This document shows, piece after piece, positions 4,245 to 49,174 of a DNA stretch of 64,000 nt (the stretch's first letter is position 1; every line of letters begins with the position of its first letter). The notes beneath the pieces were generated by a model, which searched no databases, was not told the origin of the DNA, and worked only from the letters and a program-made list of their open reading frames with translations. The position numbers and the translations under genes are program-made. The DNA is from Minisyncoccota bacterium (GTDB lineage Bacteria; Patescibacteriota; Minisyncoccia; Phycocordibacterales; JACRKE01), in the NCBI GenBank assembly GCA_041660505.1, contig JBAZWG010000001.1:115979-179978 (forward strand), in the 5' to 3' direction.

Positions 4245-4280
4245 GAGGTTCGACCTTAAGCACAAAAAAGGTCGAACCTC
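4245..4280 (+). terminator. Hairpin after rpmG, built from two copies of the 13-bp palindrome (GAGGTTCGACC...GGTCGAACCTC)
   Basis: 11-bp perfect stem with A-rich loop. No strong U-tract. Confidence 0.4.
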
Positions 4281-4345
4281 TGGAATGGTTTCGCATTCTC
4301 TGGTATAGTTAAAAGCGCCGAAAGGCGCTTTGGTGTTTAAATCTT

Positions 4346-4418
4346 GGGGGATTAGTTTAGTGGCAGAACAAGCGTCTCCAAAACGCTAGGCGAAGTTTCG
4401 ATTACTTCATCCCCCGCC
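4346..4418 (+). tRNA. tRNA-Trp (anticodon CCA)
   Basis: GGGGGAT acceptor pairs with ATCCCCC. Anticodon loop CTCCAAA. T-arm GAAGT-TTCGATT-ACTTC. Confidence 0.8.
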
Positions 4419-4429
4419 CTCGAAATTTT

Positions 4430-5434
4430 ATGTTAACCCCGACTAATTGGAAAGATTATGAGCTCATCGACTCCGGTGACGGAATGAAGCTGGAGCGTTG
4501 GGGCAAGTATGTTCTGGCACGGCCTGACCCACAGACTCTATGGCAGAAGGAGCGGCCGGAACTTTGGAATACTGCGGTGGGAGTTTATACGCGTAGTACC
4601 TCCGGTGGCGGCTCTTGGAGGTTTACAAAGGAACTGCCCGAGCGATGGAAGATTTCGTACAAACTAGAAGGCGAGGCCTTCTTGATGCCCAAGGCCTCGC
4701 CTTCTAGTTTGAGTTTCTGGGTGCGCCCGACAGACTTTAAACATACCGGATTATTTCCGGAACAGGCAGTGAATTGGGGCTGGCTGCGCGACACAATAGG
4801 AGCTAGGAGTTTGGAGTTAGGAGTTGGGGCAGAGAAAATTTCCGTGCTTAATCTCTTTGCCTATACGGGGGCGGCAACAGTCGCCTGTGCTTCGGCAGGT
4901 GCTAGGGTGACACACGTGGATGCTTCCAAGGGCGTCGTGACCTGGGCGCGCGAGAACTTAGAGTTAAACCAAGCCTCACCCCTAACCCCTCCCCGAAAGG
5001 GAAGGGAAACTCTCAAGAATCCCCCCTCTCCTTCGGAGAGGGGGCAAGGGGGTGAGGTGAGTGTGCGCTGGATCGTTGATGATGTCTTCAAATTCGTGGA
5101 GCGTGAGGCAAAGCGCGGTGTCAAATACGACGGCATTATTATGGACCCACCATCCTACGGTCGTGGTACCAAGGGAGAGACATGGAAGATAGAGAAAATG
5201 CTCTGGCCACTCGTCAAAGAGTGCGTCACCGTACTTTCTGATAAGCCTCTGTTCTTTTTAATTAACTCATACACATCAGGACTACCCGCAACAGTCATGA
5301 GCAACTTACTTGAGAGCGCGATGAAAGGCAAGGGTGGTAGTGTTCATTCCGAGGAGCTCGGCTTAAAAGGCTCTGCAACGGGAAGAATTTTACCGGCTGG
5401 AGTGACCGCAAGATGGCAGCAAAAGTCCTCGTAG
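4430..5434 (+). CDS. Class I SAM-dependent RNA methyltransferase (RlmI/YccW-like) carrying an in-frame ~84-bp palindromic-element insertion (4974-5057)
   Basis: LNLFAYTGAATVACASAGA...THVDAS SAM-binding motif and IIMDPPSYGRG (DPPxY) motif. The insert encodes SPLTPPRKGRETLKNPPSPSERGQGGEVS. The 3' end overlaps tRNA-Arg by about 10 nt. Confidence 0.7.
   Translation: MLTPTNWKDYELIDSGDGMKLERWGKYVLARPDPQTLWQKERPELWNTAVGVYTRSTSGGGSWRFTKELPERWKISYKLEGEAFLMPKASPSSLSFWVRPTDFKHTGLFPEQAVNWGWLRDTIGARSLELGVGAEKISVLNLFAYTGAATVACASAGARVTHVDASKGVVTWARENLELNQASPLTPPRKGRETLKNPPSPSERGQGGEVSVRWIVDDVFKFVEREAKRGVKYDGIIMDPPSYGRGTKGETWKIEKMLWPLVKECVTVLSDKPLFFLINSYTSGLPATVMSNLLESAMKGKGGSVHSEELGLKGSATGRILPAGVTARWQQKSS
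4974..5057. repeat. Palindromic element family B, copy 1 (inside the RlmI-like gene). 84 bp, a multiple of 3
   Basis: CCTCACCCC...CCCCTCCCCGAAAGGGAAGGG...CCCCCTCTCC-TTCG-GAGAGGGGG-CAAGGGGGTGAGG. The outer arms are complementary. Confidence 0.7.
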
Positions 5435-5496
5435 TCTAATGGATAGAATACTCCCCTCCGAAGGGAGTGATGTGGGTTCGATTCCCGCCGAGGACA
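5425..5496 (+). tRNA. tRNA-Arg (anticodon CCG)
   Basis: GTCCTCG acceptor pairs with CGAGGAC. Anticodon stem CTCCC/GGGAG with loop CTCCGAA. T-loop GGTTCGATTCC. Confidence 0.8.
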
Positions 5497-5498
5497 TA

Positions 5499-5990
5499 TC
5501 AAAGCTTTTTGACGTAAGCAGAAAACTTTTTTTCAGTTCCAGAAACTAGTACAAGTTCATCTGGTTTTTTACCAAGATCGCCCGACGAAAGCTTAAGAAA
5601 AACTCCGTTTGGCTTCAGAACGCGAAAAATTTCACTAAGCATTTCTTCCTGATTCTGATTATATAATCCTTGATGAAAAACGCCGGCCGCAATAATGACG
5701 TCAAAAGAATTTTCAATAAACGGCAGTCTCTCAATTCTTGCTTCTACTATGCCGGCCTTGTTTTCTCCTCGCGAACGTATTTCTACGCCAAATGCATCTA
5801 TACCGTGGCTTCTTAAATCTGAAACCATGGTGCCATCACCCGATCCGACATCAAGAACTTTTGATTTTGATAAGTCTATCTCTGGTAAACCGAATTTCTC
5901 AAGCCAATGATTAATTTCTTCGTAACGCCACGTGAACGCATCCTCAGCAGCATTCGGCACTCTCACTATGTCTCGTGGCGAACCTTCCAT
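5499..5990 (-). CDS. Small class I SAM-dependent methyltransferase
   Basis: VLDVGSGDG motif I, acidic motif II and FDVIIAAGVFH motif. 163 aa. Confidence 0.6.
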   Translation of the reverse strand: MEGSPRDIVRVPNAAEDAFTWRYEEINHWLEKFGLPEIDLSKSKVLDVGSGDGTMVSDLRSHGIDAFGVEIRSRGENKAGIVEARIERLPFIENSFDVIIAAGVFHQGLYNQNQEEMLSEIFRVLKPNGVFLKLSSGDLGKKPDELVLVSGTEKKFSAYVKKL

Positions 5991-6082
5991 AGTAAATACT
6001 ATATCACAATAAAATCGATAACACCAAACAAGCTTTGCTAAAATTTACAGAGTGGCCACCAGAAAACATCGACTAAACTTTA

Positions 6083-6166
6083 TGCGTAGGGAAGGATTCG
6101 AACCTTCGTAGCCCATAGGGCGAGAGATTTACAGTCTCTTGCATTTGACCGCTCTGCCACCTACGC
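6083..6166 (-). tRNA. tRNA-Tyr (anticodon GTA), type II
   Basis: Reverse complement gives GCGTAGG...CCTACGC acceptor, anticodon loop CTGTAAA, long variable arm and T-arm GAAGG-TTCGAAT-CCTTC. Confidence 0.85.
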
Positions 6167-6209
6167 GAGACCAATATACTAACAAATTTTTCTGGCTTTG
6201 TCTTGCTAC

Positions 6210-6497
6210 TTATTTGTTCCCTTCGTTTCGTATCTCGCGTATATCTCTCTTGACGACTTCTGCCACGTCTCCGCCGATTTTAAGACCATTTTTGAGTCCG
6301 GCCTTAAACAGTCTGACTCCTTCCTTGCCGGCCTTCTTGGCGGCCACTTCAAACTCTGCTTGATATTTCTTGCGTTCCGGTTCTGACGCCTTCCATTTTT
6401 TCTGGATTACCTTCGCTGCTTTGTTTGCTTCTTTACCTGCTTTTTTGGCGACGGAACGTATTTTCTTGATTACTTTTTTGCCTTTTGTGTTTTTCAT
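6210..6497 (-). CDS. Lysine-rich basic protein (histone H1-like / nucleic-acid-binding, putative)
   Basis: About 95 aa with roughly 30% Lys/Ala (KKVIKKIRSVAKKAGKEANKAAKVIQKKWK...). Immediately downstream of clpB on the same strand. Could still be a low-complexity artefact. Confidence 0.35.
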   Translation of the reverse strand: MKNTKGKKVIKKIRSVAKKAGKEANKAAKVIQKKWKASEPERKKYQAEFEVAAKKAGKEGVRLFKAGLKNGLKIGGDVAEVVKRDIREIRNEGNK

Positions 6498-6520
6498 GTT
6501 CTTTTTGTTATTACACATTA

Positions 6521-9220
6521 TTATTTTCTTTGTGTCGCGCGCTTCGATTGAATTGGCGACAGTTGAGACGCCTTCATCTCTTTGGCCAGGGTTACGACGA
6601 TCTTGCCGTCTTGCTCGTCTACAAACACGGTTCCCCCGCCGACCAGTTGCTTCTTGATTATGAATTCGGAAATGGGATTGAGAATACTGCTTTGGATGGC
6701 GCGCTTAAGCGGACGTACGCCATAATTCGGGTCGTAACCCTTCTCTGCGAGCGTGGTGACAGCCTTGTCTGACATTTTTATAATAATATTCTGCACAGCC
6801 AAACGTTTCTCGGTAAATGCCATCTGCACGCGCACGATATCTTTGATCGTATTAAGCGAGAGTTTATTGAAGATAATTATCTCATCGAGACGATTTAGGA
6901 ATTCGGGGCGGAAGTGTTCCTTAAGCGAGAGCATTACGCGATCCTTCTGCGCATCATCTACGCCGTCAGAAGTAATATTGCCAAAGCCGATAGTCGGCAG
7001 ACGGTTTAGGAATTCCGAACCGAGATTCGAGGTCAGAATGATTATTGTGTTCTTGAAGTTGACGAAGCGCCCCTTGGAGTCCGTGAGCCTGCCGTTATCC
7101 AAAACTTGGAGAAGAATATTAAATACCTCCGGATGTGCCTTCTCGATCTCATCGAAAAGTACAATAGAATACGGCCGGTGACGCACCGCCTCGGTGAGTG
7201 TCCCCGACTCTTCATAACCCACATAGCCCGGGGGCGAGCCGATAAGCTTCGACACGGAATGGCGCTCCATATACTCCGACATGTCGACACGAATAATTGC
7301 CTTCTCGTCGTTGAACATAAAGTCGGCAAGTGATTTGGCCAGTTCTGTTTTACCAACGCCCGTCGGACCAAGGAAGATGAATGACCCTATCGGTCTGTCC
7401 GGATCGCCGATGCCAGCGCGCGAACGTTTAATCGACTCTGATATTTTTTTGATAGCCTCGTCCTGGCCGATAACACGTTTACGCAGCTCATCCTCTATTC
7501 TGGAGAGCTTCTCGCTTTCTGCCTCAAGCATTCGCTGAACCGGTATCCCTGTCCAACGCGAGACCACGGCCGAAACGTCTTCCTCGCGGATCTCTTCCTT
7601 AAGAACGCGAGTGTCCGACTTTATGAGTTTGAGCTGTTCTTCTTGGATATGCAACTCTTTCTCCTTTGCTGGGATTTTGCCGTAACGAATCTCCGCAGCC
7701 TTGGTCAGGTCAGACTTCATCTCCGCAGCCTCGGCTTCCAGGCGGAGCGACTCGAGTTCCTTGCGAATGGCGCGAATGAGGAGAAGGTTGTCGTGCTCCT
7801 TCTGCCAGCGCGTTTGGAGCTCGGCTGTTGCGTCTTTTTGCGCTTTGATATCCCTCTCGATAACTTTAATGCGTTTCTTGGCCTCTTTGCTCGCGTCTTT
7901 GTTGTCTATTGCGGTCGCTTCTTTGGTCAGCGCTTCTTTCTCTATCTCGAGCCGCATCACCTTACGGTCGGTATCAGAGAGCAAGGCAGGCTTGTCTTCA
8001 AGTTGTAAGCGAATAGATGCGGCCGCCTCGTCAATAAGGTCAATGGCTTTATCAGGCAAGTATCTATCAGTAATATACCTGCTCGAGAGTTCAACTGCGG
8101 CTACAAGCGCTTCGTCGGTTATACGAACGCCATGATGCAACTCGTACTTTTCTTTAAGTCCGCGCAAGATGGAAACCGCGTCTTCTTGGGACGGTTCGCC
8201 TACATAAACCGGCTGGAAGCGCCGTGCCAATGCCGGATCACGTTCGATATACTTCTGATATTCTTTAAGCGTCGTGGCGCCAATCACACGGAGCTCGCCG
8301 CGCGCTAGCGCCGGCTTGAGCATGTTAGATGCGTCCATCGAGCCTTCAGCGGCGCCGGCGCCAACCAAAGTATGTATCTCGTCAACAAAGAGAATTATCT
8401 TCCCGGCCGCCTTCTCCACCTCTTTAATAACACCCTTTAGGCGCTCTTCGAATTCGCCACGATATTTACTGCCGGCAACGAGCAAGCCCAAGTCGAGCGA
8501 AATTATCTCTTTATCCTTCAGTAAATTCGGAATGTCGCCCTTGGCAATTCTATTGGCTAGACCTTCCGCCACAGCCGTTTTGCCGGTACCTGCCTCGCCG
8601 ATTAGTATTGGATTATTTTTCGTTCGGCGCGAGAGGATTTCCATGATCCTGCGCGTCTCCTCATCTCGGCCGATTACCGGGTCGAGCTTGTCTTGAGCGG
8701 CGAGGCGCGTCAGATTGCGCGCATATTTCTCGAGCAGTTTGTTTTTCTTGGTCGGTGAAGTGGCATCGGTTATTTTGGTCTGTTTGAGTTCGTTTACGAC
8801 ACGGTAGGCATCTTCTTTTTGTATTCTGAAACGCGAGAGCAGTTCCTTAGCCTGGCTCGGGATTTCAAGAAGGGCGAGGAATAAATGTTCGAGACCGATA
8901 AAATCATCTTTAAGATATGCGGCAATTTTGCCGGCGGCATCCAACACTCTTACCAATTCCGGAGTCAAATATATTTGGTATGCGGGCGATACGGTTGTGG
9001 CTGTCTCTGGCGACTCCATCGCCTCCATTACATGGTCGCCGAACAAGAGCGGGTCAACGCCCAACTTCTCAATTAGTGCGAAGATGAACGGATCTTCTTG
9101 CGTTACGATAGAAGCCAACAGATGAATAGGCGCAACCTGGTTCTGCCCGCGTTCAATAATAACCTCGTGAGCCTTACGGATCGCCTCCTTGGCTTTAGTT
9201 GTGAAATTCCCAAATGGCAT
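6521..9220 (-). CDS. clpB: Chaperone ClpB (AAA+ disaggregase)
   Basis: 899 aa. N-domain, two AAA+ modules ([30 protein letters not shown]) and an M-domain coiled coil between them. Confidence 0.95.
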
Positions 9221-9230
9221 AATCGTGGGT

Positions 9231-9272
9231 GCCGAGGTTCAACCTTGAGCATCTTAAAGGTTGAACCTCGGC
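9231..9272 (-). terminator. Bidirectional hairpin (GCCGAGGTTCAACCTT...AAGGTTGAACCTCGGC) between the 9300..10229 gene end and the clpB start
   Basis: 15-bp stem made of two 13-bp palindrome copies. Located 3' of the minus-strand gene ending at 9300. Confidence 0.4.
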
Positions 9273-9299
9273 AGTCATTAATTGCTCAAACAATCTATT

Positions 9300-13728: not shown

Positions 13729-13733
13729 ATTTA

Positions 13734-13816
13734 TGCCCGGGGTGGGACTCGGACCCACACGACCTTGCGGTCAAAAGATTTTAAGTCTTTCGCGTATACC
13801 ATTCCGCCACCCGGGC
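13734..13816 (-). tRNA. tRNA-Leu (anticodon TAA), type II
   Basis: Reverse complement gives GCCCGGG...CCCGGGC acceptor, loop CTTAAAA, long variable arm and T-arm GTGGG-TCCGAGT-CCCAC. Confidence 0.85.
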
Positions 13817-13840
13817 AATTCGATTTTCAATACCACACAG

Positions 13841-13936
13841 AGGCCGCGGGGAGAATCGAACTCCCGTATAAAGGTTTTGTCCCCCCTACGGGGGATCTCC
13901 CGCAGGGAGACGGACCTTACCTTTTACTGCCTCGTG
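13841..13936 (-). other. tRNA-like element or degenerate tRNA between tRNA-Cys and tRNA-Leu
   Basis: Reverse complement contains a perfect T-arm (GGGAG-TTCGATT-CTCCC) and two GC hairpins. I could not pair a 7-bp acceptor stem or identify an anticodon arm. It needs tRNAscan or Infernal. Confidence 0.2.
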
Positions 13937-14008
13937 AGGCCTGGGCGGGAATCGAACCCGCGCATAAGAGTTTTGCAGACTCTCGACTTACCACTTGTCT
14001 ACCAGGCC
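13937..14008 (-). tRNA. tRNA-Cys (anticodon GCA)
   Basis: Reverse complement gives GGCCTGG...CCAGGCC acceptor, anticodon stem AGAGT/ACTCT with loop CTGCAAA, and T-arm GCGGG-TTCGATT-CCCGC. Confidence 0.8.
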
Positions 14009-14017
14009 TTTAAATTT

Positions 14018-14272
14018 TCAACAGTACAAATTTCTTAGTATCTCCTTTTGTTGTCCGGTCTTGAGGAACATTTCTCGCCGAAACGCTTCGGCTCTCGTTG
14101 CGTATTCTTCGACTCGCTTAAGTTCCCATGGTTTGTAAAACTGTGTCGATTTAACTTTACCACTATTATGCAGATGAAGTCTATTAGTAACATCCGCTGT
14201 ACTTCCTACATAAAGTCTGTGCTCTTTTTTACTTAACAATACATAGACATAATACATACTTCGCTTTACCAC
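14018..14272 (-). CDS. GIY-YIG nuclease superfamily protein (small, URI-domain only)
   Basis: YYVYVLLS...LYVGSTADVTNRLHLHNSG plus a downstream conserved Arg/Glu. Embedded inside the tRNA cluster. Confidence 0.7.
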   Translation of the reverse strand: MVKRSMYYVYVLLSKKEHRLYVGSTADVTNRLHLHNSGKVKSTQFYKPWELKRVEEYATRAEAFRREMFLKTGQQKEILRNLYC

Positions 14273-14363
14273 TTAGTGTCCCCTCGGGACATCTACCGAA
14301 GGTATGACAACGCGGCCGTAGCGGTTATAGTAGCAGTTTTTCGACACGAAATAAAGCACGATT

Positions 14364-14447
14364 TGGTGGGCGGGAGAGGACTTGAACCTCCATGCCTTGC
14401 GGCACCAGCTCCTAAGGCTGGCGTGTCTGCCATTTCACCACCCGCCC
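14364..14447 (-). tRNA. tRNA-Leu (anticodon TAG), type II, CCA encoded
   Basis: Reverse complement gives GGGCGGG...CCCGCCC-A-CCA, anticodon stem CCAGC/GCTGG with loop CTTAGGA, and a long variable arm. Confidence 0.85.
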
Positions 14448-14464
14448 TGCTTTCGCGAACACTG

Positions 14465-14537
14465 TCCGCCCAGTAGGATTCGAACCTACGACCTTCTCGT
14501 TAAGAGCGAGCAGCTCTACCAACTGAGCTATGGGCGG
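14465..14537 (-). tRNA. tRNA-Lys (anticodon CTT)
   Basis: Reverse complement gives CCGCCCA...TGGGCGG acceptor, D-arm GCTCAGTTGGTAGAGC, loop CTCTTAA and T-arm GTAGG-TTCGAAT-CCTAC. One mismatch at the top of the anticodon stem. Confidence 0.75.
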
Positions 14538-17272: not shown

Positions 17273-17320
17273 ACCATAGTAGCAATACCGAGGTCAGTTA
17301 TCAAACGTGGATATCAATTC

Positions 17321-17363
17321 GGGGTAAGGTTTCGCCTTACCCCGAAGGGCTAAAGCCCGAAAG
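17321..17363. repeat. REP family A copy (intergenic), followed by a small GGGCTAAAGCCC hairpin
   Basis: GGGGTAAGGTTTCGCCTTACCCCG, a perfect 9-bp stem with TTTCG loop. Confidence 0.7.
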
Positions 17364-17427: not shown

Positions 17428-18591
17428 CTAAGCATCCAACTTGCGGGATCGGAAGACCAGCCTGCTGCCAGCACTCCACCTGCTGTCAGGAGAGGCGTAG
17501 CCGTAGCTGAGCCAGCGCCTGCCACCGTCCGCGCTGACGCTCCAGACGCGCGGATCGTCGCCACGATCGGTAATCTGCTTCATGGCCATATAGAGATATT
17601 CTCCCATAGGTTGGTCGGAATATTGGAGACGCAGGTAAACACCTGCTTCAGCGGGTACGAGCTCGAAACCGAGTTCCGCTGCTCTTGTGTAGATTTCATC
17701 AGTCGTTGCACCGTTCGGGAAGCCCAGAGATTCCACTGAAAAGCTAACCAGATTGTATTGTTCTTGTGTGCCGGTAAACTCTGTTTTTGCGAGCATGTCT
17801 TTGGCGTAGTCGCCGACTTCAAAACCCTTCGCCTTGAGTGCTCGCTTCGCCTCTTCTGCATTTGTGATAGTTGGGTCGCCTTCGACGGTTTTCAGGAATA
17901 TACTTTGGTCGGGGAAGCGTTCATAGGCGTGTTTGATTGATGGTGGAAACTTTGCATATACTTCGGGATTCCACGGGCCGATATAGGCGACGGTTTCTGA
18001 AGTAATGGCACTCGGTTCGTAGGCGATTTGTGCAGGAGTACAGTCAAAGAGTACGGGAAGGTCATCCTTTTGGTTGCGCTTCGCCTGTATTTCTTTGATC
18101 CGCGGGTCGCGGTCGTAGCCAAAACCCTCAATTTTTGACTCGATCTCGTAGAGAAAGATAAGGTCTTCTCGGGGTAAGGTTTCGCCTTCCCCCGCCTTGC
18201 GCTCGATGTCGGTGAGGCGCTTCATGTCTGCAGACTTCTTTTTGTACTTGTCTGCTTCGGGGCCGAAGTCTTTTAGTTTCTCGTCGAGCTTTGGAGCAAT
18301 ATGCGGGTCGAAGTTTTGGTCATGGGCAATACCGCGGATTTCACCGATGTGCTCGCCCTGCATGCGGATAGCTAGGCGTGGGACAATCGCTTCGCCCGCC
18401 TCATTGATTGAGTAGTAGAGGTGCATGTCTCCGCCATCTAGGTAGTTTTGCGCAGTGGTAAGATCGGCGATGCACCATTCTAGCGGGTGGCCTTCTAGAG
18501 ATTGTACCAGCTCTGTTGCATCGCCGCCTTGCTTATAGGTAATCCATTTTCCTCGTGTCTCCTGCAAGCCTTCGGTAGAATACTCCGGCAT
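17428..18591 (-). CDS. Hypothetical protein. This is the C-terminal part of a longer reading frame that continues upstream, in frame, to 19347 across a single TAG
   Basis: No internal stops in 17428..18729. The 138 nt upstream of the annotated ATG also translate cleanly (RLEQKAKPKDERTALKNESIKLSDEEFQALLSTENFSKIYAQFLIE-MPEY...). Contains an in-frame REP copy (GEGETLPRED). Confidence 0.5.
   Translation of the reverse strand: MPEYSTEGLQETRGKWITYKQGGDATELVQSLEGHPLEWCIADLTTAQNYLDGGDMHLYYSINEAGEAIVPRLAIRMQGEHIGEIRGIAHDQNFDPHIAPKLDEKLKDFGPEADKYKKKSADMKRLTDIERKAGEGETLPREDLIFLYEIESKIEGFGYDRDPRIKEIQAKRNQKDDLPVLFDCTPAQIAYEPSAITSETVAYIGPWNPEVYAKFPPSIKHAYERFPDQSIFLKTVEGDPTITNAEEAKRALKAKGFEVGDYAKDMLAKTEFTGTQEQYNLVSFSVESLGFPNGATTDEIYTRAAELGFELVPAEAGVYLRLQYSDQPMGEYLYMAMKQITDRGDDPRVWSVSADGGRRWLSYGYASPDSRWSAGSRLVFRSRKLDA
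18171..18196. repeat. REP family A copy (in-frame inside ORF 17428..18591)
   Basis: GGGGTAAGGTTTCGCCTTCCCCCGCC. Confidence 0.65.
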
Positions 18592-19347: not shown

Positions 19348-19392
19348 GAGAAGAGTATATCAAACGCCAAAATTGACGCAAATTTATCTATC

Positions 19393-19416
19393 GGAGTAAG
19401 GCGAAACCTTACCCCG
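19393..19416. repeat. REP family A copy at the 3' flank of the RAYT gene
   Basis: GGAGTAAGGCGAAACCTTACCCCG, with the loop in opposite orientation. Confidence 0.7.
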
Positions 19417-20089
19417 AATATGGATATTTTGGCTTTTTCTCTTTTTCGCCTATTAGCATTGTGGCGACTTCGCTGAAGTCTCCCTGCTCTATAAGCCATT
19501 TAAAATAGTTATTTGGAATCTTGGTATAATCTTTCAGAACCTCCGGATTTAGGATCTTATTTTTTACAAACTTATTGTCGTACGCTTTAGCACTTGAGTA
19601 TTGATACGTTTGTAGCACAGACTCTCTTGGTAAGAAATTCTTCATCTCACAGGGATTTAGGTGGATGTAATCTATAATTTTCAGCAAGTATTCTTCATCG
19701 GTTATCAGCTTACTTTTAAATACTCCTTGAAAAAGTGCGCCGCTCCGCCCATACTTTTCGTTAAAATACATTGTGTAGGCAGTGCCGAGCCGTTGCATAA
19801 ACTTACTGATACCTCCCTCATAAATTTCGTGGAGGAGTAAATGAAAATGATTCGGCATAAGGCAGTATGCCATTACCGCAACAAGTGGTTTATGGTCAAT
19901 ATCTTTTTCTGCTTCTTCTCCTTGCGATTTTATCAGACGACTTGGACTTTCCACTTCACGATCATTGAGCAAATACAGATACTTTAAAAACAACTTGCGG
20001 TCAGCATTGGACAGAAAAATATCGCGCTTCTCGGTTCCGCGATTATAAACATGGTGAAAAGATTCTAATTCAATAGGTACACGCTCCAT
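19409..20089 (-). CDS. IS200/IS605-family Y1 (HUH) transposase of the REP-associated tyrosine transposase (RAYT) type
   Basis: FHHVYNRGTEKRDIF, CLMPNHFHLLL (HUH) and YIHLNPCE (catalytic Tyr region) motifs. Flanked at 19393-19416 and 20108-20137 by the GGGGTAAGG-TTTCG-CCTTACCCC hairpin repeat. Confidence 0.75.
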   Translation of the reverse strand: MERVPIELESFHHVYNRGTEKRDIFLSNADRKLFLKYLYLLNDREVESPSRLIKSQGEEAEKDIDHKPLVAVMAYCLMPNHFHLLLHEIYEGGISKFMQRLGTAYTMYFNEKYGRSGALFQGVFKSKLITDEEYLLKIIDYIHLNPCEMKNFLPRESVLQTYQYSSAKAYDNKFVKNKILNPEVLKDYTKIPNNYFKWLIEQGDFSEVATMLIGEKEKKPKYPYSG

Positions 20090-20107: not shown

Positions 20108-20137
20108 TTCGGGGTAAGGTTTCGCCTTACTCTGGGG
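20108..20137. repeat. REP family A copy at the 5' flank of the RAYT gene
   Basis: TTCGGGGTAAGGTTTCGCCTTACTCTGGGG. Confidence 0.7.
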
Positions 20138-26497: not shown

Positions 26498-26746
26498 GCT
26501 TATATTCTATCGTAGAAGCGTTGTAATACAATGGGATAACTTGCTTGACATTATATACTCTATGTGCTATTATTAGACGTTTCGTTCTTTGAGAATCGTA
26601 TATAGAATCACTCAATATAAGTAGAAGAACTCGAAGTTCACCATTTGGGATTCGCGAATAATGCATAGTTCGCGGATCCTAGTTTGTGAACTTCGAGACA
26701 TTCCGTCTCATCAGAATTGACGCCGCACTGTGGCGATGGGAGAAAC

Positions 26747-27661
26747 ATGGGTATCTTTATCGTGGCAATCATCACCCTCATCATTGTAAACCTTCTAGTT
26801 AATGGCTGGGAGGTTGTCAATGAGCCAGAGGTTGCAATCAAACAGCGACTTGGAAAGTATGTGGGTACGGAAGCACGAGCAGGTTTTCATTTCTGTTTCC
26901 TACAAGGCCTTCTGACCACGCTCGTCCGATTCAAGGTTGAGAGGGTCGAGAAAACAATTGCTATCGAGGACGTTAAAACTCCTGATAACATTATCAGTGT
27001 TGTAGCGAGCAGCTACCGCTATAGCCCTGACCCAAGTAATGCCGCCAATTTCATTTTGAGCAAGATGCACACCGGTGTTGAAGAATCGTTCGAGAGGGCG
27101 ATTAAAACGAATGTACGCGAGCTGGCTCGAAGGCAAGGTGAAAAACCGGAAACATGGAAAGAGCTCATGGACTCAACCGAGATGATTTCACGCGAAGTCA
27201 TCAGGAAAATCTGCAACGGTGCTACCAATGAGGACATCGATGCGATCTACAACGATCGCGCGAACCACAAGGTGGCGCCTTGGGGGGTTATCGTCCACAA
27301 GATTGATGTCACAAGGGTAGTCTCCGACATTAAACAAACCGAAGCCGAATCTGATAAGGCGGCAGAGGAGCCTCAACAGCAAGGCCAGGTCAAGAACATG
27401 GAGACTATCATCCTGATGGCAGCCAAAATAAAGGAGAAGTTCCCAGGTCAGTCAGATGACTGGTGCTTCAGTCAGGCACGGTTTGTCCAGATGTCGATCG
27501 ACAAGGGCACGAAGGGTATGCCCCAGATACTTGACCCTGTCTGGGCATCGCTTGGCAACAACCTCATGTCTGTACTGATGGAGTTCGCAAGGTCTAGACA
27601 GAGTAGTAACCCTAAGATCATCTACTTGCCAACAGGTTCAAACACGGGAAAGGAGGAGTAG
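26747..27661 (+). CDS. SPFH/band-7 (stomatin/prohibitin-like) domain membrane protein
   Basis: N-terminal TM (MGIFIVAIITLIIVNLLV), then a VVNEPEVAIKQRLGKY...GFHF...YRY SPFH core. The C-terminal half is diverged. Start taken at the internal Met of ORF 26717..27661. Confidence 0.55.
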   Translation: MGIFIVAIITLIIVNLLVNGWEVVNEPEVAIKQRLGKYVGTEARAGFHFCFLQGLLTTLVRFKVERVEKTIAIEDVKTPDNIISVVASSYRYSPDPSNAANFILSKMHTGVEESFERAIKTNVRELARRQGEKPETWKELMDSTEMISREVIRKICNGATNEDIDAIYNDRANHKVAPWGVIVHKIDVTRVVSDIKQTEAESDKAAEEPQQQGQVKNMETIILMAAKIKEKFPGQSDDWCFSQARFVQMSIDKGTKGMPQILDPVWASLGNNLMSVLMEFARSRQSSNPKIIYLPTGSNTGKEE

Positions 27662-35644: not shown

Positions 35645-35685
35645 AAGCGCTCTGGTTCGTCCGGAGCGCTTTTCTGTTTTTATCC
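35645..35685 (+). terminator. Intrinsic terminator (AAGCGCTC-loop-GAGCGCTT followed by TTTTCTGTTTTT)
   Basis: 8-bp GC-rich stem followed by a U-tract. Confidence 0.5.
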
Positions 35686-35720
35686 GTCCCTACCGACGAG
35701 GTTCAACCTCGGCGGTAAAA

Positions 35721-35786
35721 GATTGGCGGCAAGGAGAGACCTCTTCCCTTTTTCTTCGCAAAATTCCTTAAGGACTCACCTTACCG
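35721..35786. repeat. Repeat family C related copy
   Basis: GATTGGCGGCAAGGAGAGACCTCTTCCC and TTAAGGACTCACCTTACCG. Confidence 0.4.
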
Positions 35787-39726: not shown

Positions 39727-39860
39727 GGTCACCAAGGACTCACCTCTTCCCTCCGCCTTTGGCGGATTCCTGGAGGAGAGACCTTGGTGACTGAATAAGA
39801 AAAAACTGGAATGTTTAAGGTCTCTCCTCCAGAGGGAGGTGAGACCTTGTGAGGTCAAAC
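39727..39860. repeat. Repeat family C. Structured inverted-repeat element(s) in the ftsA-ftsZ intergenic region. A related copy lies at 35721-35786
   Basis: GGTCACCAAGG...CCTTGGTGAC terminal IR encloses CCGCCTTTGGCGG. A second, partial inverted copy is AAGGTCTCTCCTCCAGAGGGAGGTGAGACC. It shares 12-19-mers (AAGGACTCACCT, GGAGAGACCT, CTCTTCCC) with 35.7 kb. Confidence 0.5.
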
Positions 39861-39943
39861 ATCCCAGTTTTTTCCTTAAATTTGTCGGTTTGACTTCTCT
39901 AAAAAATCGCGTAGAATGAGGCATTACGAACAAAAATCATCGT

Positions 39944-42817: not shown

Positions 42818-42903
42818 TTACAAAAAGCCGGTTCGCGTATACCATAGACATCTGTACTGCATGAGTCGTGTGGACTTGTGCTTGAAAGGGAAAAGGAGGA
42901 GTC

Positions 42904-43546: not shown

Positions 43547-45013
43547 TTAGTTCTTACCCTTCTCCGACGAGTTGAACCAGCCCGGGAAGTACTGCTGGCG
43601 GAGCTTGTCGATGAGGTTGTCTGCCTTATCCATTCTGTCGTCTCCCATGTTTCGCAGAAAGCTCTTCAAAGCTTTGCGATAACGAGCGACCGAGAACCTC
43701 CAGTCCTTGATTGCTGACTTGAGGCTTTCTTTCTCGACGGCGTTGAGCATGTCAGACATGGATAGGACCACGATGGCCTCTTCCTTGTCGAGGAGGTCTT
43801 CGAGAGACCACCTCGTGAGATCGAGCCGATCCATGTAGGACCAACCCTCGAACCCACCGTACCCGAACAACACCGGGTAGTTCTGACGATACAGCTGATC
43901 ATATCCTTGTCGGATTGATGCTCCGATGAGGACGATGACGGCCTCGCCAGCCGTCATCTTGTTTGCCACGGACTCGACTTTAGAGGCGTCGAGCTTCTTC
44001 TTGAGTCCCGCGAGGAACGGAAACTTCTTCAAGAGCTTGGTCTCCTGCTCTGGCGTGAGTGGCCTCGGTTGGGCCTTCAGCTTCCTCGCCGGAGCCTTCA
44101 ACTTCTCGATGGCTGCGGGTACCCTTGCTGGCGCTTGCAAGGCAAGCATGGCGGCCAGAACATCCTGCTCGCCGTCGATGACGACGTCGTGCTCGGTCCC
44201 AAAATCCTGTCCACGATCCCAACCCTCCGCGAACTGGCAAAGCTGGTAGATGCCAGATCGTGGCCCGCCTCCCATCTGCAGAGCGGCGACCAGTTTCTTG
44301 GCGATCTCCGTGTCCAAAGCCCCATTGACGTCAGGGGCACTGTCGAGGACCTCGTCGAGTATCTTCTCGGCCTCGAGAACCCGCTCGAAGTAGTCGAGAG
44401 GCCCAGTGAGAACATGCCGCTTGAATACCGAAGTGGTAGCAATCTGGGCGCCCATTCGCGCCCATGTATCACTCATGTTGACGAGCCTCGTGGCGCGGTC
44501 AATCCGCTCCTGAAGTGGCGCAGGTGTCCGGAACGGGTCAACTGCCGTCATACCAGAAACTTCCCACTGTACTACGTAGGCCGTGTCTGGTGAAAGGCCA
44601 TCGATAGTGACGCTCCCGTAGCCGTTGTTGTTTGAGGATACAAACATGTTCGTGTAGTCCTGGCCGTTCAAACGGACCGTGACATTAGCGAGCTGTTCGA
44701 TTGCTGGCATTTCCTCCGGCTGAGCGGGGAAAACTACTCGCACCCACCCAACCGCGGAGTGGTCTGACATCACGTTGACTCCGTGTGTGTCGATCATTCC
44801 GGACGACACAGGAACGGCTGTCGTTGTGGGAGTCGGCGGCAGGTCGCGTGACGCTGCCGTGGCCGTGTTGGCCGCGCGGGCCTTCACGACGTCCTTGGCT
44901 GTCGCCGGCGTGGGGTCGAACCCCATGCCATTGACGCCTGCTCCGCACCCGAACGAACCGAAAACGAGTCCTGCGACCAGGAAGGTCGCGATGATGATCC
45001 GAATGGCGTGCAT
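43547..45013 (-). CDS. Secreted/lipoprotein, hypothetical (GC-rich island)
   Basis: Signal peptide with FGCGAG lipobox-like motif. 488 aa. Thr/Pro-rich linker, then a helical domain. Confidence 0.5.
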   Translation of the reverse strand: MHAIRIIIATFLVAGLVFGSFGCGAGVNGMGFDPTPATAKDVVKARAANTATAASRDLPPTPTTTAVPVSSGMIDTHGVNVMSDHSAVGWVRVVFPAQPEEMPAIEQLANVTVRLNGQDYTNMFVSSNNNGYGSVTIDGLSPDTAYVVQWEVSGMTAVDPFRTPAPLQERIDRATRLVNMSDTWARMGAQIATTSVFKRHVLTGPLDYFERVLEAEKILDEVLDSAPDVNGALDTEIAKKLVAALQMGGGPRSGIYQLCQFAEGWDRGQDFGTEHDVVIDGEQDVLAAMLALQAPARVPAAIEKLKAPARKLKAQPRPLTPEQETKLLKKFPFLAGLKKKLDASKVESVANKMTAGEAVIVLIGASIRQGYDQLYRQNYPVLFGYGGFEGWSYMDRLDLTRWSLEDLLDKEEAIVVLSMSDMLNAVEKESLKSAIKDWRFSVARYRKALKSFLRNMGDDRMDKADNLIDKLRQQYFPGWFNSSEKGKN

Positions 45014-45213
45014 TTGCCACTCTCCTTTCTTTGCCCTGCTGTGTGATACAGACGGGGCGGTAATGGTCCTTTGAGACCGTTGCGCTTAGGCAAAGCAATG
45101 CTTAACCCAAGAATAACGGCCCCAAATAACCTTACTTTGCTTGTTTATTTTGATTCACTAAACGTATGTCAAAGATCGAAATAACCCGTACATAGTAGCA
45201 CACCTATTGACAT

Positions 45214-45290
45214 TCTGTCAAGGAGTTAAATATTATTTAAATAGGCCATTGATTGACATTATGTCAAATATAGTGTAGTATTTAAAGGAT
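45214..45290. promoter_or_regulatory. Divergent promoter region with two TTGACA-N3-TGTCAA palindromic operator-like sites
   Basis: TATTGACATTCTGTCAAGGAG at ~45213-45230. TTGACATTATGTCAA at ~45251-45265, followed 17 nt later by TAGTAT (-10-like). Confidence 0.4.
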
Positions 45291-45346
45291 TTCTTCGTTG
45301 ACAACGCCCATACCGGGCATCATAGTTTTATCCACGGAGGTGGATT

Positions 45347-46957
45347 ATGGTTCTCTTTATCGTAGCGATGATTCTGGTTTGCGGTCTCGGCAACATCGGC
45401 TGTGACCCTGCGGACTTCCCGCAGGCGCAGTCTGGCATCCAGCCCGCTTCGACCAGCTCGTGCTGGCCGTCGCAGGTTATGACAGCCACGGTGGCCGAGG
45501 TCGTTGCCCACAACAATCCTGCGACGGTCAGCCAGACCATCGCAGGGAGAATCGGGCAGGACTTCGGTGGTATCGTCGTCGACGCGACCGCAGCACGACG
45601 AGACATTGAGGTGTGGTCGTTGGTTCAAGTTATTGAGACGACCAACGGCGCCATGCCGACGATGCTTACAAACCTGCAGATGTTCAAGGGCACAGCGCCG
45701 TTGAACACAGGATCGGCGATTGCGAACCCTAGCACCTCCGCAGTGCTTGTGGTCTTCGACCAGCCGGTCTATGTCCCCCATGGGACGGTCGCGACATTCG
45801 CGACCAAGGCCAACGTTTCGGCGGCGGCACCTGTCGGTGCGAAGTTCTCACTTCGCAATGCCGGTGTTGTCGCATTCGAGGCCGGTGGTGGCCCACTCGT
45901 TCCAGTTGCGATTGACCGAACCACTGCGGGAAATACGGTCACAGTCGTTCGCTCTGGCCTTGCGCTAGGTACCGACACGTCCTCGCCTAGCTACCAACAA
46001 GTGGCTGGCGGGACGGTGAACGTCCTTGCGACGGTCGTGAAGTTCCGGGCAACAAGCGAGAACGTGAGGCTTCAGCGCCTCTATCTCGCTCTGGTTTCCG
46101 GGAGCACGTCCAGTATCGTGCAGGGTACAGTCTGGTTGGGCTCCGCGCAAGTTGGGTCGGTAACGTGGACGGGCGTGAGCACGCGTGCAACTTGCACGCT
46201 TGACTCACCCGTGGACATCCCCGACGGTCAGGATGTGCCGATGATTGTCCGAGTTGACGTGGCACCAATCGGCGTCAACCAACCCGGCCGGTCCGGCGAG
46301 CTCATCAGGCTCACCGTAATCGGCGCCGACGCCATTGGCCTCGAGTCCGGCGAGTCGGTCACAGCAACTGGCTCGGCAGAATCGATGGGCTTTCGCACGT
46401 ACAAGTCCGTGTCCACCATCTCGCTCGACTCGCTCCCCACGCAGGGAGCAACGGACGGGCGGTTGATGCGGTTCAAGGTCGCGGCCAACCCGCTTGGCAG
46501 CATCGGACTTGCGAAATTGAGCTTCCGGGTCAATACGACCGGTTGCTCGACTTCGGGTTTTAGTCTGACAATGTATGGGGATCCTGGTTACGCTATTACG
46601 GTGGGTAGCGGTGTGTTCAAGGCCACCGGTGCAACGCCAACGAGTTCCGGCCTCGTCGAGATTCTCGGCGAGCCAACCATCAATGCCGCCGCCGGAACTC
46701 AAATGTTCTTCGAGCTCCGAGCAAATGTGGCACCGAGTGGAGTGGATTACTCGGTGGTCACGACCTTGCTCGGAGAGACTGCGCCCCTGCCGCCAGCAGG
46801 GATGTCTTCGGCTCCGGAGGTCGACGGCCACGGCGGGCGCTTCATCTGGACGCCGAACAGCCTCTTCCAGTCCGGTCTCGTAGACCTCGACTGGACGAAC
46901 GGGTTCGGGGTACTGGGTCTGCCCTCGAGCGGGCTCGCCCAAGTCCGTACTAACTAA
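45347..46957 (+). CDS. Secreted surface/adhesin-like protein (lipoprotein signal, Ala/Thr/Gly/Val-rich beta-rich), GC-rich island
   Basis: Signal peptide with VCGLGNIGC. 536 aa, low complexity, beta-strand-like. No enzymatic motif. Confidence 0.5.
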   Translation: MVLFIVAMILVCGLGNIGCDPADFPQAQSGIQPASTSSCWPSQVMTATVAEVVAHNNPATVSQTIAGRIGQDFGGIVVDATAARRDIEVWSLVQVIETTNGAMPTMLTNLQMFKGTAPLNTGSAIANPSTSAVLVVFDQPVYVPHGTVATFATKANVSAAAPVGAKFSLRNAGVVAFEAGGGPLVPVAIDRTTAGNTVTVVRSGLALGTDTSSPSYQQVAGGTVNVLATVVKFRATSENVRLQRLYLALVSGSTSSIVQGTVWLGSAQVGSVTWTGVSTRATCTLDSPVDIPDGQDVPMIVRVDVAPIGVNQPGRSGELIRLTVIGADAIGLESGESVTATGSAESMGFRTYKSVSTISLDSLPTQGATDGRLMRFKVAANPLGSIGLAKLSFRVNTTGCSTSGFSLTMYGDPGYAITVGSGVFKATGATPTSSGLVEILGEPTINAAAGTQMFFELRANVAPSGVDYSVVTTLLGETAPLPPAGMSSAPEVDGHGGRFIWTPNSLFQSGLVDLDWTNGFGVLGLPSSGLAQVRTN

Positions 46958-46987
46958 ACTGTGCGAGGTTGAACCTCGCACAGTTTG
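46957..46987. terminator. Hairpin (AAACTGTGCGAGGTTGAACCTCGCACAGTTT) at the right border of the island. Contains the 13-bp palindrome
   Basis: 12-bp stem around a self-complementary core. Confidence 0.45.
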
Positions 46988-47051
46988 ATTCAGCTCTTTC
47001 TCGCAACCCGGCTTCCATGTGGAAGTCCGGGTTGCTTTGTTTTTATACTGC

Positions 47052-47816
47052 TTATTTCGCAGAGGTTTCGGACGCTATGAATTTCTTGACATCGGCCAAT
47101 GTGTTCATGAACTGCGCCGGGAAGATGATGGTCGAATTTTTCTCTACGCTTATCTCGGCCATCGTCTGTAAATTGCGGAGTTGGAGGGCAATCGGGTGCG
47201 CTTGCATCACGTCGGCGGTATCGGCCAACTTCTGCGCGGCGAGGAACTCACCTTCGGCGGCGATAACCTTGGCGCGCTTCTCGCGTTCGGCCTCGGCTTG
47301 TTTGGCCATTGCCCTTTGCATGTTGTCGGGGAGCTGAATGTCTTTTATTTCCACCACCGAGACGACGACACCCCACTGTTCGGTGTGCCCGTCCAATACT
47401 CCGCGAATCTCGGTATTAATAGTATCGCGAGAGGAAAGTATCGTGTCGAGCTCGAAGCGCCCGACGATATTCCTCACTGTTGTTTGGGCAATCTGATTGA
47501 TGGCGTTCATCACGTTCTCGATTGCTATCAAGCTCTTGGTTGCATCCACAACTTTGTAATAGGCTACGGCTGAAATGTCTACCGAGACGTTATCCTTCGT
47601 AATTATTTTCTGCGGAGGGATAGGTAATGTTATCGTGCGCAAGTCGACTTTGTATAAAATATCAACGTACGGGATTATCCAGTTCAGACCCGGGTTGCGC
47701 TCCCCCACAATCTTACCGAAGCGGAAGACGACACCTTTTTGATATTGCTGGACGATGCGCACGCCCGGCAAGACGACGAACACTATGACGAACACGAGAA
47801 TGTAAACTATGTCCAT
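47052..47816 (-). CDS. SPFH/band-7 protein (stomatin/QmcA-like)
   Basis: N-terminal TM, then RIVQQYQKGVVFRFGK...ITKDNVSVDISAVAYYKV..., a canonical stomatin-family core. Confidence 0.85.
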   Translation of the reverse strand: MDIVYILVFVIVFVVLPGVRIVQQYQKGVVFRFGKIVGERNPGLNWIIPYVDILYKVDLRTITLPIPPQKIITKDNVSVDISAVAYYKVVDATKSLIAIENVMNAINQIAQTTVRNIVGRFELDTILSSRDTINTEIRGVLDGHTEQWGVVVSVVEIKDIQLPDNMQRAMAKQAEAEREKRAKVIAAEGEFLAAQKLADTADVMQAHPIALQLRNLQTMAEISVEKNSTIIFPAQFMNTLADVKKFIASETSAK

Positions 47817-47848
47817 ACGAAAAAATTATTAAATAATTTCTTACTTTT

Positions 47849-49174
47849 TTATTTACGTCTCCAAGAGGGCTTAAAGCCGCCATGCCCGCCACCACGTCCG
47901 CCATGTCCGCCAAATTTTTGTGATTCATAAGGGCGTTCTTTGATAGTGCTCTGGCGTGCCGGCGGGAGATCTTGCGGCTTGGATTTCTCCGGCAGGCGCT
48001 TCTTGGTCAAACGTTCGATGGTCTGTATGTCACGGCGCTCATGATGCTCGGCGAATGAGATTGCCTTGCCCTCTTTACCCGCGCGGCCGGTACGGCCGAT
48101 GCGATGGACGTAATCCTCGGCCGAGTCCGGTAGGTCATAATTAATAACAAGGCCGATGTCGGAGACATCGATACCGCGCGCAGCAATGTCTGTCGCCACC
48201 AAGACGCGATATTTACCTTTCTTAAATCCGAGCAAGGCCTCTGTGCGCTGTGAGAGAGATTTATTGGAATGAATATCCGTCGCCGTATGACCCATGTCTT
48301 GGATATGTTTGGCGAGTCTCTTGGCACCGTGCTTGGTGCGTGAGAAAACGAGTATCGTGCCCGGGTTGTCGGCAATGAGCTTCTCGAGCAAGCGCGATTT
48401 CTCTTCTTTCGTAACGAAATAAATTTCTTCAGAAATTTTTGCAACAGTCGTGCCCGATGTGGCAACCTGTACCGTTTGCGGTGCGTGCAGATAGGCCTTC
48501 GCCATTTGAGCAATCTTGTCCGGCATCGTGGCCGAGAAAAGAAGCGTCTGATGTACCTTCGGGATCATCGCGATGACGGTGCGAATCTGCGGCTCGAATC
48601 CCATATCAAGCATTCTGTCGGCTTCATCGAGAATTAATATCGAGACTTGGGATAGGTCAATCGTCTTCTGGCGAATGTGGTCATTGATACGGCCGGGGGT
48701 AGCGACTATCACGTGCGGATTCTCGCGGAGCTTGCGCATCTGGGCACCCATGTTGGCACCGCCGACGAGCATGGCGGTTTTAATTCCTAAATCTTTTCCG
48801 ATAGCAACAAGCTTCTCGTCCACCTGGGCGGCGAGCTCGCGCGTGGGCAAGAGCACTAGGCCAGTGCCCTTGGTCAAGGCTAGGCGCTGGAGCATCGGCA
48901 GACCGAAGGCGAGCGTTTTGCCTGTGCCGGTCTGGGCGATACCGATGATGTCCTTGCCAGTTAACACAACCGGTATGGCCTGCGCCTGGATAGGTGTCGG
49001 GTTGGTAATATTGAGCTTAGCTAGAGTATTGGTGAATACCGGAGCGAGGCCGAGGTCGGTGAAGGTTACTGAACCAACCGTAGAAGGTTCAACCTTTTGG
49101 ACCTGCCCGACAGTGCCAGTCATTGGCAGGCGGGTGCCTAAGGTTGAACCTTGGGAAGTGGTGTTTTGTGGCAC
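47849..49174 (-). CDS. DEAD-box ATP-dependent RNA helicase with Gly/Arg-rich C-terminal tail
   Basis: Q-motif FTDLGL...PTPIQ, AQTGTGKT, DEAD, SAT, HRIGRTGRAG. The real start may be the Met at ~49123. Confidence 0.9.
   Translation of the reverse strand: MPQNTTSQGSTLGTRLPMTGTVGQVQKVEPSTVGSVTFTDLGLAPVFTNTLAKLNITNPTPIQAQAIPVVLTGKDIIGIAQTGTGKTLAFGLPMLQRLALTKGTGLVLLPTRELAAQVDEKLVAIGKDLGIKTAMLVGGANMGAQMRKLRENPHVIVATPGRINDHIRQKTIDLSQVSILILDEADRMLDMGFEPQIRTVIAMIPKVHQTLLFSATMPDKIAQMAKAYLHAPQTVQVATSGTTVAKISEEIYFVTKEEKSRLLEKLIADNPGTILVFSRTKHGAKRLAKHIQDMGHTATDIHSNKSLSQRTEALLGFKKGKYRVLVATDIAARGIDVSDIGLVINYDLPDSAEDYVHRIGRTGRAGKEGKAISFAEHHERRDIQTIERLTKKRLPEKSKPQDLPPARQSTIKERPYESQKFGGHGGRGGGHGGFKPSWRRK

Follow-up and report, generated by a model that had tools for sequence, protein, structure and literature searches.

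The 64-kb stretch of Minisyncoccota DNA analysed here (part of contig JBAZWG010000001.1 and called the window, at its whole length, below) carries eight copies, at five loci, of a 13-bp near-palindrome. These palindromes are very probably repetitive extragenic palindromic sequences (REPs), and their pairs doublets resembling REPINs (REP doublets forming hairpins), i.e., short non-autonomous hairpin elements of a Y1/HUH transposase of the RAYT (REP-associated tyrosine transposase) type. We observed a hairpin-forming repeat, its doublets with an orientation bias, and its spread throughout Patescibacteria (also called CPR bacteria, for candidate phyla radiation). Transposase genes were found to be flanked by the palindromes, each by its own variant; the presence or absence of elements differed between close relatives, and many copies lay in frame inside genes.

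In published REPINs, the REPs are short imperfect palindromes, and what replicates is a pair of them in inverted orientation, folded into a hairpin. The spacers all differ yet fold, doublets commonly have one orientation and rarely the other, excision gives rise to long palindromic singlets, and RAYT genes are flanked by REPINs. Several RAYT-REPIN families may coexist in one genome, and the elements, of about 100 bp, are almost exclusively extragenic. The REP/REPIN-RAYT reading is favoured because five of these features were matched (inverted doublets, differing yet folding spacers, orientation bias, palindromic singlets and flanked RAYTs), and because transposase genes were flanked on both sides, including those at loci chosen by protein alone. 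The likeness to the proteobacterial systems, i.e., the bacterial interspersed mosaic elements of E. coli and the GI-GIII REPINs of Pseudomonas fluorescens SBW25, extends to the many short imperfect palindromes per genome, the single hairpin formed by a doublet with a variable, folding spacer, the long singlets, the Y1/HUH genes with their own palindromes, and the several paralogs and families per genome.

The repeat unit and its five loci

The unit is a 13-bp near-palindrome, RAGGT-YSR-ACCTY, with the general architecture RAGG-N5-CCTY. Each unit is a 6-1-6 palindrome in which both half-sites match AAGGTY. An earlier note on this DNA had counted eight copies of the exact 13-mer GAGGTT(C/G)AACCTC. 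Eight related copies are indeed present, but the exact form occurs only twice (35698-35710 and 46965-46977), while the other six (4245-4257, 4268-4280, 9234-9246, 9257-9269, 49084-49096 and 49140-49152) are one or two bases off, with an outer G/A or C/T exchange or a TCG/CGA centre. The positions given earlier for the last pair were 10 bases too high, and the ends of the first two pairs were slightly off. The over-representation claimed for the palindrome was borne out. Allowing up to two mismatches to the 13-mer, 8 copies were observed in the window against 1.16 expected, and 8 or more appeared in 0 of 100 shuffles; the core AGGTTSAACCT with up to one mismatch gave the identical set of 8 against 0.74 expected, and the zero-order expectation for RAGGT-YSR-ACCTY is 0.03. 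Among patterns of the form AGGT-Nx-ACCT, only x=3 was enriched, with 9 copies against 0-1 at other spacings. Units of the wider RAGG-N5-CCTY architecture numbered 26, against about 3.6 expected from composition by our own estimate. The motif density in the window is 1 per 7-8 kb. The five loci are as follows (window positions; the elements carry no strand):

4245-4280: REPIN-like doublet GAGGTTCGACCTT-10 nt-AAGGTCGAACCTC, 13-bp stem and 10-nt loop
9230-9273: REPIN-like doublet TGCCGAGGTTCAACCTT-10 nt-AAGGTTGAACCTCGGCA, 17-bp stem and 10-nt loop
35691-35717: singlet CGAGGTTCAACCTCG, intergenic, forming the tip of a longer imperfect hairpin
46956-46986: singlet in a perfect 15+1+15 palindrome, AAACTGTGCGAGGTT-G-AACCTCGCACAGTTT
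49084-49152: doublet AAGGTTCAACCTT-43 nt-AAGGTTGAACCTT, imperfect 32-nt arms, with a spacer that itself folds

Three of the five loci (4245-4280, 9230-9273 and 49084-49152) are inverted pairs and two are singlets, and four of the five are extragenic. The proposal that the copies pair as hairpin arms also held, with stems of 13 bp at 4245-4280 and 17 bp at 9230-9273. All five loci fold stably both as DNA (z -4.5 to -8.2) and as RNA (-16 to -35 kcal/mol, z -3.8 to -7.8). No T-tract directly follows the motif hairpin at any of the five loci, and a terminator scan called none of them.

The first two pairs had been correctly placed, one after rpmG and one between clpB and its upstream gene. The former begins 10 nt past the rpmG (L33) stop at 4234 and is followed by a separate canonical terminator (~4313-4340) and then by tRNA-Trp. 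The latter lies in the clpB leader (minus strand), downstream of a TTGACA-17-TAAAAT promoter-like site (9325-9297, minus) that nearly matches the sigma-70 consensus, and ends 9 nt before the ATG at 9220. The singlet at 35691-35717 is located downstream of a terminator (35645-35671) and upstream of the signal peptidase gene. The palindrome at 46956-46986 overlaps the stop of the hypothetical open reading frame (ORF) 45347-46957, and a terminator-like hairpin with a T-run was seen by eye after it, at ~47005-47045. The pair at 49084-49152, at the start of a DEAD-box helicase gene, is downstream of a promoter-like site with the perfect sigma-70 consensus, TTGACA-17-TATAAT (49228-49200, minus). No Shine-Dalgarno sequence was recognisable at the start codons 9220 (clpB) or 49174/49123 (helicase).

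Around one of the singlets, the G+C content is 0.56 (44001-48000) against about 0.48 elsewhere in the window. ORF 45347-46957 in this region has no Pfam match, ORF 43547-45013 also lies there, and the region is possibly acquired DNA. A palindrome adjoining ORF 26717-27661 (26630-26697; 34+34 nt, 79% complementary, no spacer) is unrelated to the motif. The window contains 13 tRNA genes, four of them clustered at 13733-14537, a number that fits a very small genome.

Transposase genes and their palindromes

The window encodes a Y1/HUH transposase, and its 719,008-bp source contig encodes three paralogs with 49-66% mutual identity, each with its own palindrome:

P0001, window 19409-20089, minus strand: RAYT-like Y1/HUH transposase gene, 226 aa, PF01797 at 33.6 bits; flanked by GGGGTAAGGTTTCGCCTTACCCC-type palindromes at 20114-20130 and 19391-19417
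P0012, locus L242: flanking palindrome TAGAAGGCGAGGCCTTCTA
P0019, locus L243: flanking palindrome TAGAGAGTTSAACTCTCTA, with only the GTTSAAC tip in common with the 13-bp motif

The window protein shows the Y1_Tnp fold, the HUH motif (LMPNHFHLLL) and the catalytic tyrosine ((IID)YIHLNP); a search of the PDB by sequence gave no match for it. The divergence of the three paralogs, each with a separate palindrome, would fit RAYTs, which are single-copy within a family. Sister families of the repeat, and further units of the same architecture, are also present in the window (again without strand):

20114-20130 (core 20116-20128): sister-family REP GGGGTAAGGTTTCGCCTTAC, with its centre about 27 nt ahead of the RAYT start codon
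19391-19417 (core 19398-19410): sister-family REP GGAGTAAGGCGAAACCTTACCCCGAA in inverted orientation, overlapping the RAYT stop codon
15727-15774: sister-family doublet with 23-nt arms and a 2-nt gap, in frame in argS
17319-17345 (core 17326-17338): sister-family singlet between argS and ORF 17428-18591
18170-18195 (core 18176-18188): sister-family singlet inside ORF 17428-18591, encoding AGEGETLPR
4660-4711: third-family doublet CAAACTAGAAGGCGAGGCCTT-10 nt-AAGGCCTCGCCTTCTAGTTTG, inside the SAM-methyltransferase ORF 4430-5434
39728-39874: nested hairpins with the RAGG-N5-CCTY units AAGGACTCACCTC, GAGGAGAGACCTT, AAGGTCTCTCCTC and GAGGTGAGACCTT, in the ftsA-ftsZ spacer
53081-53101: singlet gtccGAGGTCTCGCCTCggac of RAGG-N5-CCTY architecture

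The GGGGTAAGGTTTCGCCTTACCCC family has six copies clustered within 5 kb around the window transposase gene. Its doublet in argS encodes residues 500-516 of arginyl-tRNA synthetase, in the DALR domain region. The core of the doublet at 4660-4711 is the same as that of the palindromes flanking P0012. The four units in the ftsA-ftsZ spacer have the centres AGAGA/TCTCT and ACTCA/TGAGA, and single units akin to them were seen at 35731 and 35770. A fourth paralog cognate to GAGGTTSAACCTC was sought in the source genome by protein searches with the L205 transposase and with P0014, and none was found. Mobilisation of the GAGGTTSAACCTC sub-family may depend on a paralog whose core is related (P0019, AGAGAGTTSAACTCTCT); alternatively, the sub-family may be an orphan.

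Outside the source genome, the association recurs. At locus L205, four copies of TCTATCGAGGTTSAACCTCGATAGAAA were found, two flanking and two inside a 224-aa ORF that is an IS200-like Y1_Tnp protein by Pfam; the PF01797 scores were 33.6 bits (window transposase) and 36.6 bits against a cut-off of 23. Homologs of the transposase were present, besides the window gene, in 20 loci ascertained by the motif; of these, 6 had the unit within 150 nt on each side of the gene and 4 on a single side, and 6 contained units within the gene. Motif-flanked transposase genes in other CPR genomes are those of L205, L014, L211, L005, L236, L246, L248 and L250.

As a check on ascertainment, protein identity alone was used to retrieve four transposase genes of other lineages. 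The exact unit flanked three of them on both sides (L246/L247, one gene on two contigs; L248; L250), and a close variant flanked the fourth (L244). In this set, the Minisyncoccota gene has the flanks TCGCAAGGTTCGACCTTGCGA and TTCGCAAGGTCGAACCTTGCGAA, the Parcubacteria gene has GGGGAAGGTTCAACCTTCCCC-type hairpins on both sides, the Vogelbacteria gene lies between doublets of the variant AAGGGTTCAACCTTT, and a gene labelled Omnitrophota is flanked by GAGGTTCGACCTC arrays, in which four direct repeats of the unit are spaced by about 31 nt (L250:2670-2860 and 1800-1850). The system may therefore extend beyond CPR, or the Omnitrophota bin of L250 may be mislabelled. Other transposase genes have their own palindromes on both sides, such as GAGG-CTSAG-CCTC, GAGG-CGACG-CCTC and AAGG-GCGCC-CCTT.

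One homolog is already labelled 'REP element-mobilizing transposase RayT' in its source annotation, and six of these proteins match NF047646 (REP-associated tyrosine transposase) and no other NCBIfam family. The likeness to the insertion sequences IS200/IS605 and their transposase-less derivatives consists in the Y1_Tnp superfamily and in the subterminal hairpins that flank the gene. In contrast to IS200/IS605, no tnpB was seen beside the transposase genes among the called genes of L242-L250 and no identical multi-copy IS units were seen, the paralogs being 49-66% identical; solitary hairpins also far outnumber transposase genes.

Spread across Patescibacteria and copies inside genes

Pattern scans yielded at least 240 loci in total, almost all in metagenome-assembled genomes (MAGs) of Patescibacteria. 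The paired pattern AGGTTSRACCTT-N4-34-AAGGTYSAACCT, scanned in one genome per species, matched at least 120 stretches of species genomes, again almost all Patescibacteria MAGs and, among the matches listed, often several per genome. An open-centre pattern matched at least 120 metagenome contigs; by our estimate, about 2 or fewer pattern matches were expected by chance. The clades matched in the species genomes were Saccharibacteria, Kaiser-, Moran-, Taylor-, Wolfe-, Vogel-, Yanofsky-, Doudna- and Levybacteria, Paceibacterota and Minisyncoccia.

The related loci show the same two forms as the window. Doublets consist of two units inverted around a 4-45-nt spacer, giving one long hairpin, and singlets form the tip of hairpins with locus-specific lower stems. 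The open-centre set contained three centre classes (TCA/TGA, TCG/CGA and CCG/CGG). Among the 134 pairs of a set unbiased as to the centre, the arms were complementary in 113 (84%), including pairs with co-varying centres of all three classes, and the arm with the central C came first in 80 pairs and second in 33 (2.4:1). A stem prolonged into the flanks by 3 bp or more was seen in 42% of singlets and 28% of pairs, with an expectation of 1.6%. The spacers are diverse, with length peaks at 10-11 and 14 nt, and partly self-complementary; spacer families recur at unrelated loci. Beyond the ascertained pairs, the related loci (1.6 Mb) contained 116 extra units, about 1 per 14 kb, where an expectation of 0.64 applies to all units together. 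One contig of 71% G+C (L098:2696-2959) contained, within an ORF, seven units in a tandem array with a period of about 42 nt; it seems to represent something else, a repetitive protein, and not a CPR genome.

In a crude ORF map, most pairs lay inside long ORFs, in all frames and both orientations, encoding peptides such as RFDL..QGRTL, QGSTL..KVEP and KVRP..RSNL. Of 312 element loci, 47% lay at least 30 codons inside stop-free frames of 200 codons or more, which cover 64% of the bases, and 20% lay equally deep in frames of 500 codons or more, which cover 27%. In LeuRS (three MAGs) and KsgA (two MAGs), an element sits at the same codon positions. Copies of the palindrome were also found in frame inside transposase genes (L205:2091-2117 and 2371-2397; also L130, L066, L035 and L053). 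On inspection, a stop codon arises within the unit in a single combination of centre and frame (GGT TGA ACC), and this near-absence of stops may aid its survival in ORFs. The in-gene elements of the window are those in argS, the methyltransferase gene, ORF 17428 and the N-terminus of the helicase, together with an unclassified hairpin insert in tsaD.

The helicase pair was compared with that of a metagenome contig (L227), whose helicase is 84% identical in protein and which is syntenic with two stretches of the window at about 72% nucleotide identity. Because the ATG start of the L227 helicase ORF aligns with the window GTG at 49174, and both motif units are in frame downstream of these codons, the pair at 49084-49152 is most likely N-terminal coding sequence, encoding QGSTL...KVEP in the N-terminal extension of the DEAD-box helicase. 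The spacer of this doublet measures 10 nt in L227; that of the window has 43 nt, and the extra 33 nt keep the frame. The earlier suggestion that the last two copies bracket the helicase start codon is therefore doubtful, and an mRNA structure regulating helicase translation is not supported by this alignment.

The tsaD genes of the two relatives differ as well. In L227, tsaD contains a motif doublet (+7 codons) that is not present in the window, whereas the window gene contains a different hairpin insert of about +26 codons (57229-57297; KINPSPTLPEGEGENTETSGLSSPSPSGRGQGGGAE), which is not in L227 and has 23-nt arms, 96% complementary, without the RAGG-N5-CCTY form. Since these inserts differ, the elements turn over between relatives.

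The string GGCACCC stands 3' of the motif in both the clpB and the helicase leaders of the window and is not kept in L227. A heat- or cold-shock operator common to clpB and the helicase was rejected, as GGCACCC is absent in L227 and the element is not near clpB except in one relative (L010).

Weighing the readings and their meaning

If the REP/REPIN-RAYT reading is correct, a RAYT-type Y1/HUH transposase would recognise the palindromes as single-stranded DNA hairpins and would copy or excise them in trans. Judging from the biochemistry of IS200/IS605 and RAYTs, binding and cleavage of the hairpins by the transposase would spread the elements, and the survivors of selection would presumably be only in-frame, stop-free insertions in tolerant protein loops. 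Any effect on the expression of clpB, rpmG or the helicase would then be a by-product. A protein-binding site had been among the candidates of the earlier note; most likely, a Y1 transposase uses the hairpin as its substrate. In terms of class, the occurrences are essentially parts of a larger repeat of a described type (REP/REPIN), with sister families in the same window.

Several points weigh against this reading. The evidence for turnover consists of indel polymorphism only, and no transposition was observed. None of the three paralogs on the source contig is flanked by exactly GAGGTTSAACCTC. The NF047646 scores of 43-53 bits fall below the curated RAYT/equivalog cut-off of 80, unlike proteobacterial RAYTs. 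The 13-bp core is common across classes to transposases only 40-55% identical, which is not typical of REP-RAYT pairs and unlike the proteobacterial systems. REPs are by definition almost exclusively extragenic, yet 47% of the related elements lie deep in long ORFs, and about half of the CPR copies are inside ORFs, unlike proteobacterial REPINs. Most loci were ascertained by the motif itself, so that sequence conservation within them is not usable as evidence; arm conservation in LeuRS, KsgA and MutY-like orthologs was for this reason discarded as a sign of constraint. Two further differences from the proteobacterial systems are the size of the doublets (about 30-60 bp here, about 100 bp in REPINs) and the head sequence. 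TAG/CTA occurs next to the stem in some families (CTAGAAGG..., CTATCGAGG...), though not consistently, and a conserved GTAG-like head, which in REPs is used for cleavage, is not established.

The occurrence in genes recalls the Rickettsia palindromic elements (RPEs), which are also in-frame palindromic repeats of a reduced-genome bacterium that encode short peptides in tolerant regions. RPEs persist in frame in genes, measure about 100-150 bp and belong to one genus; no transposase is known for them. Compared with them, the CPR elements are shorter (13-60 bp) and linked to a Y1 transposase.

It is very unlikely that the motif acts primarily at the RNA level, by ending transcription or stabilising mRNA at gene ends and by regulating translation from the leaders of clpB and the helicase. 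The stable RNA folds speak for it, as do the two copies that start within 10 nt of a stop codon, the one that ends shortly before the clpB ATG, and a doublet about 60 nt upstream of clpB in L010. In E. coli, REPs are able to stabilise the mRNA upstream of them and to influence the termination of translation. However, the hairpins lack T-tracts, separate canonical terminators follow at two loci, about half of the related copies are inside ORFs and the helicase pair is probably coding. Scans of Rfam at gathering and E-value thresholds returned only tRNAs, and no sub-threshold match overlapped the sites. Among five other clpB loci with a readable 5' end, a doublet was near clpB in one (L010); it was 0.65-3.6 kb away in L217, L229 and L191, and further in L166. 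The earlier idea of a genome-specific terminator module likewise disagrees with a Patescibacteria-wide motif without T-tracts, which is followed by separate terminators at 4245 and 46965 and lies in ORFs in about half of the related copies. Secondary effects of the hairpins on mRNA stability or translation are possible, as consequences of REPs rather than an alternative origin.

Still less probable is that a dimeric protein binds the double-stranded 13-bp palindrome at the half-site AAGGTY, as a global regulator or a nucleoid or chromosome factor like Noc, MatP or ParB. The 6-1-6 symmetry with two AAGGTY half-sites would suit such a protein. The extrapolated number of sites, tens to about a hundred per 1-Mb genome, would suit it as well, as would their presence regardless of coding status and the two window copies just downstream of strong promoter-like sites. 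However, independent sites need neither a complementary neighbour, yet 84% of pairs are complementary, nor variable complementary flanks. In addition, a single genome contains sister families whose 5-nt centres are quite different, each linked to a separate transposase paralog, and most relatives do not keep the position upstream of clpB.

The least probable of these alternatives is a DNA-uptake signal, which would mark self DNA for the competence machinery widespread in CPR and accumulate by biased uptake and recombination. Like the DNA uptake sequences (DUS) of Neisseria and the uptake signal sequences (USS) of Haemophilus, the motif is short and clade-wide, with its core common to a large clade, is found in coding as well as non-coding DNA, and often forms inverted pairs close to gene ends. 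Its copies lie in every frame and either orientation, and the element-bearing segments of KsgA and the MutY-like protein are about as long as in their E. coli homologs, which looks like conversion rather than pure insertion. However, DUS and USS occur at about 1 per kb, a density roughly ten times that found here (about 1 per 7-14 kb), and an uptake signal, as had been proposed earlier, would leave unexplained the palindromic unit with its arm complementarity, the locus-specific stems that reach into variable flanks, the spacer families and the flanking of transposase genes by clade-specific variants; a literature search found no paper tying an uptake sequence to Saccharibacteria.

Further candidates were rejected. 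The cyanobacterial repeat HIP1 (GCGATCGC) is also a palindrome over-represented phylum-wide in genes and spacers; HIP1 is 8 bp long and far denser, is not known to be organised as hairpin doublets or to be linked to a transposase, and with only 2 copies in the window it is not enriched. TIGR-Tas stem-loop arrays were dismissed because the hairpin spacers are too short and inspection by eye showed no box C/D; the LexA motif of Patescibacteria was dropped because the cited versions include direct repeats. A tRNA T-arm/T-loop mimic does not fit, as the loop TTCRA is on one strand only and the window copies occur in both senses; sequestration of Shine-Dalgarno or anti-Shine-Dalgarno sequences (GAGGT/ACCTC) does not fit the commoner AAGGT/ACCTT, and no start codon is suitably placed. 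Loop orientation relative to genes was abandoned as a test for an RNA-level role because the loops are largely symmetric.

Our literature searches found nothing linking RAYTs or REPINs with Patescibacteria, most subscription journals being outside their coverage. Searches for the exact motif strings gave only unrelated primer-type matches, and those for CPR together with palindromes, hairpins or uptake sequences found nothing relevant. REPIN-RAYT systems have been studied mainly in Proteobacteria, where they are described as extragenic.

For the annotation of the window, what had been taken for a regulatory or uptake motif becomes a repeat family of known type. The window motif itself is an ordinary-looking REP family; more interesting are the CPR-wide core and the copies within genes. 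Unless flagged, the several hairpin inserts that lie in essential genes would be misread by gene callers and aligners. We lean slightly towards the view that the Patescibacteria as a whole carry an ancient REPIN-RAYT-like system, with the core (RAGG-N5-CCTY, most often AAGGT-YSR-ACCTT) kept across class-level lineages and the elements routinely in frame in genes, including those of aminoacyl-tRNA synthetases, TsaD, KsgA and the transposase itself. The short conserved core may be usable as a CPR marker in metagenomes. If the clade-wide view is true, the elements would be a recurrent source of peptide insertions in minimal genomes. It would bear on how selfish or domesticated hairpin elements persist with almost no non-coding space, on the origin of lineage-specific loops in CPR proteins, and on how conserved the DNA-hairpin specificity of Y1 transposases can be.

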